Shown here piece by piece: positions 3,621 to 48,663 of a DNA stretch of 64,000 bases. Each line of letters starts with the position of its first letter. Position 1 is the first letter of the stretch. The stretch covers positions 8,853 through 72,852 of the forward strand of contig CAWATZ010000006.1 of NCBI GenBank assembly GCA_963784995.1, written 5' to 3'. Under the pieces are notes generated by a model. That model had not been told where the DNA came from. It did no database searches and saw only the letters and a list, made by a program, of their open reading frames with translations. A program made the position numbers and the translations under genes. The stretch comes from an uncultured Planctomycetota bacterium (lineage in GTDB: Bacteria > Planctomycetota > Planctomycetia > Gemmatales > Gemmataceae).

Positions 3621-3689
3621 ATTACTCCGGCACGAAAGATCGGAGGCCGGATTGTCAATCCGGCCTCCGATCTTTCGTGCCGGAGTAAT
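3621..3689. repeat. perfect 33-bp-arm palindrome with 3-nt loop (attactccggcacgaaagatcggaggccggatt / gtc / aatccggcctccgatctttcgtgccggagtaat)
   Basis: Read directly. Arms at 3621-3653 and 3657-3689. Lies between divergent genes. Produces mirrored peptides in both-strand ORFs 3540..4163 and 3591..3809. Confidence 0.85.
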
Positions 3690-8614: not shown

Positions 8615-8634
8615 TTGCACCCCCGACATCCCCA

Positions 8635-8720
8635 CCCCGGGTTGCGCTGCGCTCCACCCGGGGCTTTACTCCGTTGGCTTCGGGAATAAAGCCCCGGGTG
8701 GAGCGCAGCGCAACCCGGGG
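8635..8720. repeat. 34-bp-arm palindrome between the MFP and RND1 genes
   Basis: ccccgggttgcgctgcgctccacccggggcttta ... taaagccccgggtggagcgcagcgcaacccgggg. Confidence 0.75.
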
Positions 8721-8765
8721 TGTGTGGGCGAGGGGCGGGGTCGGGAACATTGTCAGGAGCCAGAC

Positions 8766-11700: not shown

Positions 11701-12281
11701 TCACGCAGATTGGCTTTGTGGTGCTGGTGGGCCTGGCCAGCAAGAACGCCATCCTGATCGTCGAGTTCGCCCGGCAGCTGCGTCAGGAGGGCAAGCCGCT
11801 GTTCGAGGCCACGACGGACGCCTGCCGGCTGCGGTTACGGCCGATCCTGATGACGTCGTTCGCCTTTATCCTGGGGGTGGTGCCGCTGGTGATCGCCACG
11901 GGGGCCGGCTGGGAGATGCGGCGGGCCCTGGGCACGGCGGTCTTCAGCGGCATGCTGGGCGTGACCATCTTCGGCATCCTGCTGACCCCGGTGTTTTTCT
12001 ACGTGATCCAGTGGCTGGGCGAGCGCTCGATCTGGGCGATCCCGGAGGTGCGCTGGGTCGGCTCGATCGCAATGGGGATGCTGGTGAGCGTCCCGCTGGG
12101 GATTCGGATGTGGATCCTGGCGGAGAGCTTCCCGACCGGGCTGCCGATCGCGCATCTGGTGGTGAGATGCCTGGCCTTTGTCGGCGGCCTGGTGCCGGGG
12201 GGCATCATTGCGTTTCTGGTGATGGGGATGCATCGGCGGTCTCGCCCTCCCCTCTCTCCGCCGGCGAGCGGCGCGGCGTAA
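8766..12281 (+). CDS. efflux RND transporter permease subunit (HAE1/AcrB-like), paralog 1
   Basis: GTG start giving VISRFFIDRPIFA with SD caggag 7 nt upstream (the ORF-track start at 8724 is likely too early). 12 TM helices and large periplasmic loops. C-terminal extension. Confidence 0.9.
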   Translation: MISRFFIDRPIFAAVLSIALTIAGAISVFSLPISQYPPITPPTVQVSVNYPGASAQVVADTVAAPIEQQVNGVDQMIYMCSTSDNSGYYNLIVTFAIGTDLNTALVMVQNRVTLAIPQLPESVQKQGLTIKKKAPNVLLAINFYSPDGRYDDLYLSNYATIHVKDEIFRLEGVGDITYLGERDYSIRAWLDPQKMAAHNITTDEVVDAISKQNTQLAPGQVGQQPVPYGQVLQMPLNGLGRLTTPEQFDAIIIRSLPGGTTTSVSSQVVRLKDVARMELGASFYYNSATVRGYPSATLAVFQLPGSNALDVGDRIRSKMLELSKKFPQGLEYEIGYDTTPFIRDSVVEVFRTLVDAVVLVAVVVLIFLQSWRATLIPLVAVPVAIVGTFAVMAAVGFSLNNISLFGLVLAIGIVVDDAIVVVENVERWMEQGYSPRESARKAMDEVTGPVVAVALVLCAVFVPCAFISGVTGQFFRQFAVTIAISTVFSAFNSLTLSPALAAILLRHRHKGSFDWVTFGLFGVVGFLMPAYLRESYEMAADWSWPLFLLVWGSGGALVGLLLFLGFNKAFDFFTNAYGRVVGFSLRLSLVVLAIYGGLLYLTYWSFGQVPTGFIPQQDQGWLMVNVQLPDSASLQRTQEVMAECERIALKTPGVKTTTSTSGYSLLLSMFGSNYASMFVILDPFDKRKTPELQGEAIMKTLRAKYRAEIHDAMVAVFGAPPVPGLGTAGGFKVMVEDRGDLGASFLQEESFKLIGASRRLPGIASTFTQYRAETPMLYADIDRTKVESLGVTVKQVNQTLEAFIGSVYVNNFNEFGRYWQVNVQAEGDYRDLTRKLHLLKMRNKKGEMVPLSTVVELRDSVGPGMVMRYNLYESAPINGNVTPGTSSGQGIKEMTAAAQRVLPRAMQAEWTELSFLQVQEAQDWRNQLVFPLAVVFVFLVLAALYESWALPLAVILVVPMCLLSAVAGVACSRLDINIFTQIGFVVLVGLASKNAILIVEFARQLRQEGKPLFEATTDACRLRLRPILMTSFAFILGVVPLVIATGAGWEMRRALGTAVFSGMLGVTIFGILLTPVFFYVIQWLGERSIWAIPEVRWVGSIAMGMLVSVPLGIRMWILAESFPTGLPIAHLVVRCLAFVGGLVPGGIIAFLVMGMHRRSRPPLSPPASGAA

Positions 12282-12360
12282 GCCCGCCGGTAGCGGATCG
12301 GTCCGCTACCGGCGGGCTTACGCCGCGCCGCTCGCCGGCGGAGAGAGGGGGGAAATCGTA
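12258..12360. repeat. perfect palindrome with about 49-bp arms spanning the RND1 stop codon and the RND1-RND2 intergenic region
   Basis: cccctctctccgccggcgagcggcgcggcgtaagcccgccggtagcgga / tcgg / tccgctaccggcgggcttacgccgcgccgctcgccggcggagagagggg. The left arm encodes the last about 10 aa (PLSPPASGAA) of RND1. Confidence 0.85.
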
Positions 12361-12374
12361 TTAGAGGATACGTT

Positions 12375-15300
12375 GTGATCTCGCACTTTTTCATCGATCG
12401 ACCGATCTTCGCCGCGGTGCTGTCGATCGTGCTGACGCTGGCAGGGCTGATCTCCGTGACGGCCCTGCCGGTGGCGCAATACCCCGACATCACGCCGCCG
12501 ACCGTGCTGGTGACGGCCAGCTACCCGGGGGCCAACGCCCAGACGGTGCTGGACACCGTGGCCGCGCCGATTGAGCAGCAGGTGTCCGGCGTCGAGAACG
12601 CCGAGTACATGTCGAGCCAATGTACAAATGACGGCACCTACACCCTGCTGGTGACCTTCAAGCTGGGCATGAATCCCGACATGGCCCAGGTGCTGACGCA
12701 GAACCGCGTCCAGTTGGCCTTGCCGGTCATTCCAGACCTGGTCCAGCGGGAGAGCGTCAGCGTCAAGAAGATTTCGCCCAGCACCATGATGATCGTCAAC
12801 CTGGTCGCCGACCCCGATGAGTCCGGCAAGCCGGTCTACAACGACATCTACGTGAGCAATTACGCCATGATCCAGGTCCGCGACGAACTGTTGCGGCTGG
12901 AGGGGGTGGCCAACGTCACCTTCATGGGCGAGCGCGACTACAGCATGCGGGCCTGGCTCGATCCGAACAAGCTATCGATCCTGCAACTGACCGCCGGCGA
13001 CGTCGTGGCCGCCATCGCGGCCCAGAACGTCCAGGTGGCGGCCGGCTCGATTGGGCAGGAGCCGGTGCCGCCGGGCCAGCAGTTCCAGCTGATCATCAAC
13101 ACGCTGGGCCGGCTGGTCACGGTGCAGCAATTCGAGGACATCATCATCAAGGTCGGCGAGGGCGGGCCGCAAGGGCAGTCGGCCAGCGTGGTTCGGCTGC
13201 GCGACGTGGCGCGGATCGACCTGGGGGCCCAGGAGTATGACCAGACCTGCACCCTCGATGGCCGGCCCTCGGTGGCGCTGTCGATCTTTCAATTGCCCGG
13301 CTCCAACGCTCTGAAGACTGCCCAGGGCGTTTACCAGAAGATGAAGCAGCTCAAGGAACGCTTTCCGAAAGGGTTGAACTACAAGATCGTCTACGACACC
13401 ACGCCGTTCATCAAGGAATCGATCCTGGAGGTGTTCAAGACGCTGATCGACGCCATCGTGCTGGTGGCCATCGTAGTTCTGGTGTTCCTGCAAAGCTGGC
13501 GAGCCACCCTGATCCCCCTGGTGGCCGTGCCGGTCGCCGTCGTCGGCACCTTCACCGTCATGGCCGCGCTGGGATTCAGTCTCAACAACCTGTCGCTCTT
13601 TGGCCTGGTGCTGGCCATCGGCATCGTGGTCGATGACGCCATCGTCGTCGTCGAGAACGTCGAGCGCTGGCTGGAACATGGCCTGCCGCCGCGTGAGGCG
13701 GCCCGGCGGGCCATGAACGAGGTGACCGGGCCGGTGATCGCCGTCGCCCTGGTGCTGTGTGCCGTGTTCGTGCCCTGTGCGTTCATCACCGGCATCACCG
13801 GACAGTTCTTCAAGCAGTTCGCCATCACCATCGCCGTCTCGACGGTGATCTCCGCCTTCAACTCGCTGACGCTCAGTCCCGCCCTGGCGGCCATCCTGCT
13901 CAAGCCCAAGACGCACACAAGCCCGGAGCGCCAGCGACGGGACGGACCACACAAGCCCGGAGCAGAAGCGACGGGTCAGTCCGACGATCCCGTCGCTGGC
14001 GCTCCGGGCTTGTGTGACCGACCCAAGGGCAGCTTTGACTGGGTGACGTTCGTGCTGTTCATCGTCATCGGTTTCGGGCTGCCGTTCTACCTGCGGCACT
14101 CCTATCGGCTGGGCGAGGAGTGGCCCACCTGGCTGTTCGGAGCGGTGTGGTGCCCGATCGGGGCCGTTGTCGGGGGGGCGACCTTCCTGGGCTTCAACTG
14201 GACCTTCGATCGCATCACCGGCGCTTACACTGCGGTCGTCAGCCTGGTGGTGCGCTTGAGCGTGGTGGTGCTGATCGGCTACGGCGGCCTGCTCTGGCTA
14301 ACCTATCACTCGTTCGTGACCTCGCCGACCGGTTTCATTCCCTCGCAGGACAAGGGCTATCTGCTGCTCAACGTGCAGTTGCCCGATGCCTCGTCGGTGC
14401 AGCGGACCATGGCCGTGATGGCCCAGCTCGATCTCCTGGTGCGCGGCGACAAGTATGATCGCGAGCATTATCCCGGCATCGAAGGGGTCAAGCACACCGT
14501 TTCGATCTCCGGCCAATCGCTGCTGCTGGGAGCCAACGCTCCCAATTTCGGCTCGATGAACGTGATGCTCAAGCCGTTCGAGGAGCGGCGCGGGCTGACC
14601 GCCGACCAGATCGGCGACCGGATTCGGAACCTGTGCCGGCAGAAGATCAGCGACGCCATGGTCACCGTCTTCGGTGCGCCGCCCATCGACGGCCTGGGGA
14701 CGGCGGGCGGCTTCAAGGTGATGATCGAGGATCGCGGTCCGTTGGGACTGGCGGAACTGCAGCGCGTCAGCGACAAGGTGGTGGTGGCCGGCAACGACAA
14801 CAAGAAGAGCCTGCAAGGGGTCTTCACCAACTTGCGGGCCTCCACGCCCTGGCTCTACCTGGACATCAACCGCGACAAGTGCATCTCGATGGGCATTTCG
14901 CTGGGCGACGTCTTCCAGGCGCTGCAGGTCTACCTGGGCAGCTATTACGTCAACAACTTCAATCGCTTCGGCCGGATGTGGCAGGTGAACATCCAGGCCG
15001 ACGATCGCTTTCGCAACCAGATCGCCGAGATCGCTCTGATCAAGGTGCGCAACTCCAAGGGCCAGATGGCGCCGCTGAGCAGCATCGCCGAGGTCACCCC
15101 CTCGACCGGGCCAGTGCTGCTGATGCGCTACAACATGTATTCGGCCTCGGCGATTTTCGGCAACAACCGGCCAGGGGTCAGTTCCGGCGATGGAATCAAG
15201 GCGATGGACGCCGCGATCAAGTCGGCGTTGCCGCCGGCGATGTCCCCGGAGTGGACCGAGCTGACGTACATGCAGCTCCAGGCCGGCAACACGGCCATGT

Positions 15301-15917
15301 TCGTCTTCGGCCTGGCGGTGGTGTTCGTGTTCCTGGTGCTGGCGGCCCAGTACGAAAGCTGGTCGCTGCCGCTGGCCGTGATCCTCGTCGTGCCGATGTG
15401 TTTGCTTTGCTCCGTGGTCGGCGTCAACCTGGACCGCTCGGACGTGAACATCTTCGTGCAAATTGGCTTTGTGGTGCTGGTGGGATTGGCCAGCAAGAAC
15501 GCCATCCTGATTGTCGAGTTCGCCAAGCAGCAGCGCGAGTCGGGCGTCGAGAGCTTCAAGGCCACGACCGAGGCCTGCCGGCTGCGGTTACGGCCGATCC
15601 TGATGACGTCGTTCGCGTTCATCCTCGGCGTGGTGCCGCTGGTGATCGCCCAGGGGGCCGGGGCCGAGATGCGGCGGCAACTGGGCGTGGCGGTGTTCAG
15701 CGGCATGCTGGGAGTGACCTTCTTCGGCATCTTCCTGACGCCGGTGTTCTATTACGTGATCCAGCTGTTCTCGGACATGCGGGGGCCGAAGCCCAGCGGC
15801 GAGCACGCAGTACCGCCGGGACACGGAGCGGACACGCATGGAGCCACGGTGGTGGGTGATGGGCAGCAGGCAGGACCGGCAACGGCGATTCAGGAGAAGC
15901 CGGGACATGGATCGTGA
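12375..15917 (+). CDS. efflux RND transporter permease subunit, paralog 2
   Basis: GTG start giving MISHFFIDRPIFA. Collinear with RND1, with a 33-aa insertion. Confidence 0.9.
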   Translation: MISHFFIDRPIFAAVLSIVLTLAGLISVTALPVAQYPDITPPTVLVTASYPGANAQTVLDTVAAPIEQQVSGVENAEYMSSQCTNDGTYTLLVTFKLGMNPDMAQVLTQNRVQLALPVIPDLVQRESVSVKKISPSTMMIVNLVADPDESGKPVYNDIYVSNYAMIQVRDELLRLEGVANVTFMGERDYSMRAWLDPNKLSILQLTAGDVVAAIAAQNVQVAAGSIGQEPVPPGQQFQLIINTLGRLVTVQQFEDIIIKVGEGGPQGQSASVVRLRDVARIDLGAQEYDQTCTLDGRPSVALSIFQLPGSNALKTAQGVYQKMKQLKERFPKGLNYKIVYDTTPFIKESILEVFKTLIDAIVLVAIVVLVFLQSWRATLIPLVAVPVAVVGTFTVMAALGFSLNNLSLFGLVLAIGIVVDDAIVVVENVERWLEHGLPPREAARRAMNEVTGPVIAVALVLCAVFVPCAFITGITGQFFKQFAITIAVSTVISAFNSLTLSPALAAILLKPKTHTSPERQRRDGPHKPGAEATGQSDDPVAGAPGLCDRPKGSFDWVTFVLFIVIGFGLPFYLRHSYRLGEEWPTWLFGAVWCPIGAVVGGATFLGFNWTFDRITGAYTAVVSLVVRLSVVVLIGYGGLLWLTYHSFVTSPTGFIPSQDKGYLLLNVQLPDASSVQRTMAVMAQLDLLVRGDKYDREHYPGIEGVKHTVSISGQSLLLGANAPNFGSMNVMLKPFEERRGLTADQIGDRIRNLCRQKISDAMVTVFGAPPIDGLGTAGGFKVMIEDRGPLGLAELQRVSDKVVVAGNDNKKSLQGVFTNLRASTPWLYLDINRDKCISMGISLGDVFQALQVYLGSYYVNNFNRFGRMWQVNIQADDRFRNQIAEIALIKVRNSKGQMAPLSSIAEVTPSTGPVLLMRYNMYSASAIFGNNRPGVSSGDGIKAMDAAIKSALPPAMSPEWTELTYMQLQAGNTAMFVFGLAVVFVFLVLAAQYESWSLPLAVILVVPMCLLCSVVGVNLDRSDVNIFVQIGFVVLVGLASKNAILIVEFAKQQRESGVESFKATTEACRLRLRPILMTSFAFILGVVPLVIAQGAGAEMRRQLGVAVFSGMLGVTFFGIFLTPVFYYVIQLFSDMRGPKPSGEHAVPPGHGADTHGATVVGDGQQAGPATAIQEKPGHGS
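13914..14016. repeat. in-frame palindromic insertion (29-bp perfect inverted arms plus internal partial third copy) inside RND2
   Basis: cacacaagcccggagcgccagcgacggga ... tcccgtcgctggcgctccgggcttgtgtg. Encodes PKTHTSPERQRRDGPHKPGAEATGQSDDPVAGAPGLCDRPK, which is absent from RND1 (HRHKGSFDWVTF). Confidence 0.75.
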
Positions 15918-15920
15918 GTT

Positions 15921-15992
15921 GTAGGGTGGGCCGAGCGTCGCGAGGCCCACCGGCAGGCGTGGTGGGCCTCGCGACGCTCGGCCCACCCTACT
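15921..15992. repeat. 31-bp-arm palindrome at the convergence point of RND2 and the OMF operon (terminator-like)
   Basis: gtagggtgggccgagcgtcgcgaggcccacc / ggcaggcgt / ggtgggcctcgcgacgctcggcccaccctac. Confidence 0.75.
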
Positions 15993-22878: not shown

Positions 22879-23027
22879 CTCCCCTCTCCCCTTGTGGGAG
22901 AGGGGCTGGGGGGTGAGGGGTTGCTTTTGATTTATCGTTTCGCGCTCACCCGGCCGAGCGCGAAACGATAAATCAAGGCGGCAAACCCCTCACCCCCAAC
23001 CCCCTCACCCACAAGGGGAGAGGGGAG
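22879..23027. repeat. 149-bp nested palindrome (outer 20-bp perfect arms, imperfect middle, inner 21-bp perfect arms)
   Basis: ctcccctctccccttgtggg...cccacaaggggagaggggag. Inner arms ttttgatttatcgtttcgcgctc / acccggcc / gagcgcgaaacgataaatcaa. Confidence 0.75.
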
Positions 23028-48511: not shown

Positions 48512-48616
48512 GTCTGGCCCGAGTAAGCTCCGTCCCTTTACGGAACCAGGGCGTTGAGATAGAATCATCCAGACACGGAGAGGTGCCGGAGCGGCCGATC
48601 GGGCCGGTCTCGAAAA
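48512..48616 (+). repeat. direct repeat Z (attR-like), partner of 33581-33685
   Basis: See repeat X. Confidence 0.7.
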
Positions 48617-48663
48617 CCGGTGTGGCAGCAATGCTACCGAGGGTTCGAATCCCTCCCTCTCCG
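48577..48663 (+). tRNA. tRNA-Ser (anticodon CGA), class II with long variable arm
   Basis: GGAGAGG acceptor. Anticodon stem-loop CCGGT-CTCGAAA-ACCGG. Variable arm TGTGGCAGCAATGCTACC. T-arm GAGGGTTCGAATCCCTC. 3' CCTCTCCG. No encoded CCA. Confidence 0.9.

Follow-up and report, generated by a model that had tools for sequence, protein, structure and literature searches.

An in-frame palindromic insert in an RND efflux permease gene of an uncultured planctomycete, and the dispersed REP-like repeat family to which it belongs

We analysed a 64,000-nt stretch of DNA (hereafter the window) from an uncultured bacterium of the Gemmataceae, phylum Planctomycetota (GenBank assembly GCA_963784995.1, contig CAWATZ010000006.1, positions 8,853 to 72,852 of the forward strand). 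One of its genes, RND2, encodes an RND (HAE1/AcrB-type) efflux permease and contains a palindromic insert that leaves the reading frame open. Our results suggest that this insert probably arose by a recent in-frame insertion of a selfish repeat that resembles repetitive extragenic palindromic (REP) sequences and their hairpin-forming doublets (REPINs), and that the pump tolerates the translated product as a cytoplasmic loop. This reading draws on the match of the insert to a repeat family dispersed in Planctomycetota, its absence from orthologues, its base composition, and the recurrence of the family in frame in other genes.

The insert consists of three repeat units in the reading frame of RND2

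RND2 lies directly behind a paralogue, RND1 (8724/8766–12281), in a tandem arrangement. A first-pass annotation, made from the letters of the window, had described two perfect 29-bp inverted arms with an internal partial copy, in frame in RND2 and absent from RND1, as an insertion of 99 bp encoding 33 residues. Arm comparison and translation of the open reading frame (ORF) confirmed the arms, the internal copy and the frame, while the size had to be revised: the palindromic block alone spans 103 nt and, together with an 8-nt tail, gives a net gain of 111 nt, or 37 codons. The features concerned are listed below (L and P numbers are our handles for the loci and proteins that were compared).

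12375–15917, + strand: RND2, RND (HAE1/AcrB-type) efflux permease of 1180 residues, host of the insert (ORF and translation; Pfam PF00873 ACR_tran on the identical protein P0001).
13914–14024, + strand: the insert, 111 nt, encoding residues 514–550, HTSPERQRRDGPHKPGAEATGQSDDPVAGAPGLCDRP (protein and DNA alignments against L111, L112 and RND1; the ends may slide by a few nt).
13914–13942, + strand (sense): repeat unit 1, the left arm, CACACAAGCCCGGAGCGCCAGCGACGGGA (core 13917–13941, 0 mismatches to the family consensus; nhmmer E = 1.9e-7).
13948–13976, + strand: repeat unit 2, the internal direct copy (3 mismatches in the core, GCC to AGA; nhmmer E = 8.7e-5).
13988–14016, − strand: repeat unit 3, the right arm, inverted (perfect complement of unit 1; nhmmer E = 1.4e-8).
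14017–14024, + strand: 8-nt tail, ACCGACCC, which appears to have come with the element (it resembles the outer flank GTCAGACCGGCCC of longer sub-family copies at L073, L021 and L082).

The resemblance of the tail to the sub-family flank is a by-eye reading of the sequences and of the junction, with no statistical test. The two arms, 29 nt each and 100% complementary, are separated by a gap of 45 nt, and the internal direct copy (13948–13981) is 82% identical to the left arm over 34 nt, with a start-to-start period of 34 nt. We denote this three-unit architecture as '++-'. Arm matches were seen in none of 100 dinucleotide-preserving shuffles of the window. Moreover, the RNA of 13900–14030 was predicted to fold with −91.3 kcal/mol, against −46.5 ± 3.9 kcal/mol for shuffled sequences (z = −11.4; 0 of 200 shuffles were as stable).

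The insert is absent from orthologues and non-coding-like in composition

In an alignment of 20 sequences, the 37 residues were present only in the RND2 of the window. RND1, as had been noted at first pass, and 18 further homologues lack them and pass directly from ...ILL(K/R)(H/P)(K/R)x to (K/H)G(S/T)FDW. The loop has a constant length of 4–5 residues in these 19 homologues, which disposes of the suggestion in the first-pass annotation that the segment might be a hypervariable loop. The closest homologues, P0003 (83% identity) and P0004 (80% identity), are both without the segment; we regard them as orthologues because they stand in the same tandem RND1–RND2 arrangement (L111 and L112), so that the orthologue alignment, too, places the gain on the side of the window. 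At the junction, L111 reads CTC AAA CAC AAG GAA / AAA GGC AGC and the window reads CTC AAG CCC AAG ACG (111 nt) AAG GGC AGC. The simplest reconstruction from these sequences is an ancestral K-P-K-T-K-G, into which 13914–14024 would have been inserted. Among 5.8 billion clustered proteins there was no relative closer than P0003 and P0004, and a metagenome scan for an empty site of the same species with a degenerate pattern of the left junction matched only a distant RND gene.

The frame of RND2 is unbroken over 1180 codons, with strong coding-type GC content at third codon positions (GC3) on both sides of the insert. The insert itself has a GC content of 0.81/0.65/0.65 at the three codon positions, compared with 0.61/0.41/0.89 in the remainder of RND2, and a GC3 as low as 0.65 occurs in just 0.27% of the 37-codon windows that lie outside the insert. 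This composition, still non-coding-like, favours a recent event and disfavours an old loop under selection. The element had also been proposed to be domesticated as coding sequence; this is unproven, given the codon-position GC, a low-confidence coil in the structural model described below, and nothing that indicates a function.

The repeat units belong to a family dispersed in Planctomycetota

The unit of the family is 5'-(C)ACAAGCCCGGAGCG-NN-AGCGACGGG, with a core of 25 nt, and both outer arms of the window copy match its consensus without a mismatch. The family was scanned for with the pattern ACAAGCCCGGAGCNNNAGCGACGG, which has 21 specified bases; by our own estimate, about 0.3 chance matches are expected in 596 Gb at uniform base composition. 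The pattern matched more than 110 stretches. Among the matches listed, 109 came from 28 metagenome-assembled genomes (MAGs) of Planctomycetota, and one was a Mycolicibacterium contig, compatible with chance. The counts given here refer to the matches listed and are lower bounds from an arbitrary sample. The MAGs carry the labels Gemmataceae, Gemmatales, Planctomycetaceae, Pirellulales, Phycisphaerae and Planctomycetia, and several single MAGs contributed at least 10–13 separate 8-kb stretches apiece. A search of the genome for other copies had been suggested at first pass; the family was seen in these 28 MAGs, and no further copy lies in the window itself. With as many as 5 mismatches permitted in the 25-nt core, we counted at least 257 units in at least 149 elements, arranged as follows.

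'+-' (tail-to-tail) doublets: 79 of the 149 elements among the matches listed.
Singles: 57 of the 149.
Arrays ('+++-', '++-', '++', '+++++'): about 13 of the 149.
'-+' (head-to-head): 0 of the 149.

Arrays of several direct units followed by an inverted one, like the '++-' of the window, were also found at L085, L092, L073, L087, L055 and L045, with periods of 29–54 nt. The core is strongly conserved across the family and the flanks are variable; in 43 of 78 doublets the palindrome stops exactly at ACAAG. The two cores of a doublet are usually 4–12 nt apart, and doublets fold to a hairpin of about 29 bp. Both arms carry the identical central variant (GCCA, GCAA, GCGA, GTTA and others) in 65 of 79 doublets, whereas random pairing gave 38 and never more than 46 in 1000 shuffles; the two arms therefore spread together, or are corrected together, as one unit. 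Among 78 doublets, none was flanked by a target-site duplication of at least 4 nt, and matches of 2–3 nt were at or below chance.

About 90% of the elements are extragenic. Of 134 such elements, 75 face the stop of an ORF within 200 nt (median distance 24 nt), and 14 lie between convergent ORF ends; these gene-context statistics rely on a crude GC3-based ORF caller, which takes GC3-rich ORFs as genes. Singles and arrays point in the same direction as the host gene, or the gene upstream, in 24 cases and in the opposite direction in 7. A single unit is predicted to fold into an unpaired 5' tail of 8 nt and a stem-loop, CCCG-GAGCGCCAGCGA-CGGG (4+2 bp), with −12.1 kcal/mol, a stability equalled by 2.4% of shuffles; this fold has the same shape as that of a GTAG unit at 15921 of the window (see below) but is much weaker. 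All six frames of the canonical doublet are free of stop codons, so that a length divisible by three is the sole requirement for insertion in frame. We rejected this lack of stops as a sign of adaptation, as we estimate its probability at such a GC content to be about 0.3 by chance.

No Rfam family reached the gathering threshold for the element, and the region gave only generic hairpin (miRNA-precursor) matches far below threshold. The family is also absent from the Rhodopirellula baltica REP families GTAG-20 to GTAG-22 in the supplement of PMC3733652, the 21-nt motif was not found in the literature searched, and Planctomycetota go unmentioned in two recent surveys. The repeat family thus appears to be undescribed, while the phenomenon itself is known.

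Two variants of the repeat were observed among the loci. In the MAG JAIXPT01 (Planctomycetaceae; L008, L012, L043, L048, L071, L075 and others), the core is embedded in a repeat of about 130–160 nt, …CCCCAACAAGCCCGGAGCGG[GA]AGCGACGGGACACCGGGT…CCACGCGGAGTCC, and these long repeats occur as local arrays, unlike the doublets elsewhere. In a longer sub-family, found at L058, L047, L073, L030, L016 and L060 (MAG JACOUH01) and at L082 (DASPXY01), a further, outer pair of inverted repeats (TATACTCGACGCGGG-N6-TGAC...) encloses the doublet, and such elements measure about 110 nt.

Copies of the family recur in frame in other genes

Fifteen of the 149 elements among the matches listed lie deep inside long ORFs with coding-type GC3, and Pfam confirmed several of these as real genes.

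Valyl-tRNA synthetase (ValRS): L028 residues 574–598 and L093 residues 542–565, at the same site; doublet, with a second, single unit in L093 at 453–461.
FGGY carbohydrate kinase: L098 residues 429–447, inside FGGY_C; doublet.
PMT-type glycosyltransferase: L036 residues 289–297; single unit.
FG-GAP/ASPIC protein: L001; single unit.

The ValRS proteins of L028 and L093 are 84% identical and have the insert in common, with arms that have already diverged. An in-frame copy can therefore outlast speciation.

The insert is predicted to form a loop behind TM6

We modelled RND2 with AlphaFold2 from 48 sequences, which gave a moderately reliable model with a mean predicted local distance difference test score (pLDDT) of 64.7. 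Residues 495–552 have a pLDDT below 50, and 509–555 are modelled as coil. This region follows a helix at 474–508 and precedes helices at 556–577 and 585–649, which are confident, with a pLDDT of 83–88 across 561–600. By homology to AcrB, we take the helix 474–508 to be the sixth transmembrane helix (TM6). In AcrB, TM6 ends on the cytoplasmic side, and by analogy the Arg/Lys-rich insert fits that side. The structural modelling called for at first pass thus returned a coil between TM6 and two confident helices, although low pLDDT is not in itself proof of tolerance. Likewise, the earlier placement between TM6 and TM7 holds for the TM6 side, but a clade-specific extra helical hairpin stands between the insert and TM7. 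Judging from the model, the insert is most likely a floppy, disordered loop of 37 Pro-, Gly- and charge-rich residues.

Residues D420, D421, K1041 and R1071 of RND2 are invariant in the 48-sequence alignment; they correspond to the proton-relay residues D407/D408, K940 and R971 of AcrB. Nothing in the sequence suggests a dead pump.

The extra hairpin was noted in its own right. A hydrophobic segment of about 45 residues follows TM6 and precedes the usual cytoplasmic helix (14037–14200, RND2 residues ~555–608, with an equivalent in RND1). It is common to both RND paralogues and the Gemmataceae-type orthologues, is absent from the distant homologues P0016, P0019, P0021 and P0100, and is modelled as helices with high confidence (556–577 and the start of 585–649). 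Possibly, the segment adds two transmembrane helices that are specific to the clade.

Comparison with known palindromic repeats

In REP, REPIN and bacterial interspersed mosaic element (BIME) systems, as in the family described here, a short conserved unit of about 25–30 nt is present many times per genome. Inverted doublets, which form a larger hairpin, predominate, and singles and clusters occur besides. REP units have an unpaired 5' tail and a small stem-loop, a shape that is also predicted, with a much weaker stem, for the unit of the family. Both kinds of repeat lie mainly just downstream of ORFs, without target-site duplication, and occasionally in frame in genes that include those for aminoacyl-tRNA synthetases; intragenic GTAG/CGTC REPs with such genes among their hosts have been reported (Di Nocera et al., 2013, PMC3733652). 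The differences are that the 5' tail of the family is (C)ACAAG and not GTAG/GT[AG]G or CGTC (CGTC occurs only in the stem, on the opposite strand), that the stem of the unit itself has only about 4+2 bp, and that no gene for a REP-associated tyrosine transposase (RAYT) flanked by family units was found in the window and 112 loci. Moreover, the family core recurs in MAGs whose labels place them in several orders of the phylum, a broader spread than that of most REP families.

Rickettsia palindromic elements (RPEs) offer a second comparison, as they are inserted in frame in ORFs whose products are probably functional proteins (cited in PMC3733652). The family likewise places a palindromic repeat in frame in unrelated genes (RND, ValRS, FGGY kinase, PMT and FG-GAP), adding peptide at tolerated sites. 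The likeness is one of analogy only: the element is shorter (~60–110 nt) and about 90% extragenic, and its host is a free-living, GC-rich Planctomycetota lineage. Bacterial miniature inverted-repeat transposable elements (MITEs; Correia/NEMIS, ERIC and RUP) are also small, non-coding inverted repeats; they form hairpins once transcribed and can be located beside genes or inside them. MITEs, however, have target-site duplications and terminal repeats derived from insertion sequences, while the family lacks the duplication and occurs as single units and direct arrays.

Closest in phylum are the class 3 TnpA-Y1 genes, which were found mainly in Planctomycetes, flanked by atypical hairpins in high copy number (PMC6006769). 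These 'REPtron-like' systems, known from Planctomycetes and from Acidobacteria (Quentin et al., 2018, PMC6006769), share with the family the phylum and the high-copy atypical hairpins, and the HUH/Y1 enzyme proposed for them would fit the absence of target-site duplications. According to that study, however, their hairpins have a 5' CnGA foot and flank tnpA; neither trait was seen in the family here, and no such gene was present in the window and the loci searched. By this analogy, class 3 TnpA-Y1 is a lead from the literature to the mobilizing enzyme.

A recent selfish insertion probably accounts for the insert

In the course of events that we favour, a three-unit '++-' copy of the dispersed Planctomycetota hairpin repeat family, behaving like REPs, REPINs and BIMEs, would have been copied in the lineage of this genome, as a block of 111 nt, into the RND2 codons for the cytoplasmic end of TM6. 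The reading frame would continue because the block has no in-frame stop and a length that is a multiple of three; the block would be translated into a 37-residue loop; and the pump would tolerate the loop because the site is a short surface linker. A RAYT-like HUH/Y1 enzyme may have mobilized the block, with a single-stranded hairpin as the intermediate. Both the tolerance and this route are steps that we infer. The insert is most likely a recent passenger, neutral or slightly deleterious (selfish DNA), rather than an adaptation.

Several points weigh against this account. Neither a mismatch search nor an nhmmer profile of 206 units found any copy of the unit in the 64-kb window beyond the three of the insert, and the dispersion was seen in 28 other MAGs, the genome of the window being covered by these 64 kb only. 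The family-level taxon labels of the MAGs are loose, and a 'phylum-wide' spread relies on the names given by the submitters. Classical REPs carry a GTAG/CGTC tag, which the unit lacks, and the stem that the unit forms by itself is short. In the window and the 112 loci (~0.87 Mb), no Y1/HUH (RAYT) transposase was found, either with regular expressions for HUH...Y motifs or by tblastn, for which approximate versions of E. coli RAYT and IS608 TnpA served as queries, together with sequences of R. baltica and others taken from the PMC3733652 supplement. Nor was there a recurrent partner gene: when 862 neighbouring ORFs were clustered all against all, the only groups to emerge were large paralogous families, Ser/Thr kinases for instance. 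Furthermore, the mean pLDDT is modest, and a loop of low pLDDT is no proof of disorder or tolerance; and we infer from the ORF that the insert is translated, including the peptide stretch HTSPERQRRDGPHKPGAEATGQSDDPVAGAPGLC.

Two candidates for a carrier were discarded. A gene pair at L008 that is bracketed by inverted unit arrays is not a transposase but an AAA ATPase and an SMR-type transporter, and a test for carriage of the family by phage yielded one viral contig only.

It is improbable, in our judgement, that the hairpin is instead kept by selection as a functional RNA or DNA structure, be it a translational pause between the pump halves, an attenuator, terminator or RNase site that tunes RND2, or a protein-binding site. 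Such a role would suit the very stable RNA fold (−91 kcal/mol, z = −11), the perfect complementarity of the arms and their co-variation in the family, the position of extragenic copies just past stops, like REP-type structures at mRNA 3' ends, and the sense bias of singles and arrays (24 to 7). A recent insertion predicts perfect arms equally well, however, and no orthologue or paralogue has a structure at the site. The older ValRS copy, kept in frame with decayed arms, looks like tolerance and not like a conserved structure. TTTT occurs within 12 nt on either side of only 8 of 80 doublets, which are thus not canonical intrinsic terminators; a Rho-independent terminator was set aside for the same scarcity of U-tracts and for the position of the window copy inside an ORF. 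Integron attC sites and a CRISPR array were likewise dismissed, on architecture, for want of R'/R'' GTTRRRY ends and of spacers, respectively.

The first-pass annotation had spoken of a MITE/REP-like hairpin, and of this pair the REP-like half is upheld by the match of the arms to the family. A classical MITE, with terminal inverted repeats moved in trans by a DDE transposase and a duplicated target site, is a very unlikely source, even though the element has inverted-repeat ends, CCCAAG stands on both sides of the insert, and some copies in one MAG have the extra outer inverted repeats. Direct repeats of at least 4 nt flank none of 78 doublets, and the common singles and direct arrays are REP/BIME-like. 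The CCCAAG pair was rejected as a target-site duplication, as conserved K-P-K and K-G codons of the host gene account for it. We give still less credence, next to none, to an origin without any mobile family, in which template switching produced a local inverted duplication de novo or the loop of the pump is simply hypervariable. The left flank CTCAAGCCCAAGACG does resemble the 5' end of the unit, CACAAGCCCGGAGCG, at 11 of 15 positions; but the arms are identical to a consensus drawn from 28 other genomes among the matches listed, and the loop length is constant in 19 homologues, findings that together effectively refute this origin. There is also little chance that the insertion inactivated RND2, making it an incipient pseudogene, or that the palindrome is an assembly artefact. 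A foreign segment of 37 residues in a membrane protein, which the tandem RND1 might compensate for, and the tendency of palindromes to be assembly chimeras speak for these readings, whereas the intact frame, the coding GC3 on both sides and the invariant catalytic residues speak against the former, and the normal family architecture of the insert, which an artefact would not be expected to have, against the latter.

A broader proposal, which we regard as doubtful though less so than the alternatives above, is that the 25-nt core is a Planctomycetota-wide cis-element read by a conserved trans-acting factor, for instance an enzyme of a novel RAYT/HUH class or a protein specific to hairpins that acts in termination or RNA processing. 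Such a factor would explain why the core is nearly identical across MAGs of several labelled orders, why doublets are strictly tail-to-tail and why copies sit about 24 nt past stops. If so, the RND2 and ValRS copies would be natural experiments in which the element, still mobile, is carried and perhaps occasionally exapted as protein.

With a recent selfish insertion as the preferred explanation, little consequence is expected for the pump itself, and annotators should read the insert neither as a functional domain nor as a pseudogene lesion. The REP-like family, shared by many Planctomycetota MAGs and clean in its REPIN-like behaviour, recurs in frame in housekeeping and transport genes and offers a handle for finding the mobilizing enzyme in this phylum. 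The family is a possible marker for strain typing as well as a source of assembly and annotation errors, and it adds a further case, beyond Rickettsia, of selfish palindromes that contribute peptide segments to proteins.

Other palindromes and features of the window

Further palindromes were noted around the two RND genes. A perfect doublet at 15921–15991 begins 4 nt past the stop of RND2, its arms of 31 nt being separated by 9 nt; it is a canonical GTAG-tagged REP doublet (GTAG-GGTGGGCC-GAGCGTCGCGA-GGCCCACC), and its loop (GAGCG...GCGA) resembles that of the unit studied here. The spacer between RND1 and RND2 is filled by a perfect palindrome with 49-nt arms (12249–12350), whose left arm provides the last 11 codons and the stop of RND1 (ending at 12281), so that the C-terminus of RND1 is encoded by a repeat. 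The orthologous spacers of L111 (1484–1619) and L112 (4914–4982) each hold a different long palindrome, indicating rapid turnover at one site. Ahead of RND1, a palindrome with 40-nt arms that are 98% complementary (8633–8722) ends 1 nt before the annotated GTG; the true start of RND1 is more probably at about 8766 (VISRFFIDRPIF). The unit of this palindrome, too, is REP-like in shape (tail of 8 nt, loop GGAGCGCAGCGCA), and the loops of the 15921 unit, the 8633 unit and the unit studied here are alike.

A further palindromic repeat family, rich in CTCCCCTCTCCCC...GGGGAGAGGGG...TGAGGGGT, is represented at 22879–23027 of the window, at L111 (1484–1619) and at L072. Within the window copy lies another palindrome, small and perfect (22927–22976). 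At 3621–3689 there is a perfect palindrome (ATTACTCCGGCACGAAAGATCGGAGGCCGGATTG) whose arms of 34 nt are 1 nt apart and which has no match in the 112 loci compared.

The two permeases also differ at their C-termini. RND1 (11990–12281) has a hydrophobic extension of about 90 residues past the usual end of TM12 (…IWAIPEVRWVGSIAMGMLVSVPLGIRMWILAESF…GGIIAFLVMGMHRR…), whereas RND2 lacks such an extension and has instead a Gly/Pro/His-rich tail (1140–1180) of low model confidence. Lastly, a tRNA gene at 48577–48663 (Rfam RF00005, 53.5 bits) is the sole member of a curated RNA family to reach the gathering threshold in the window.

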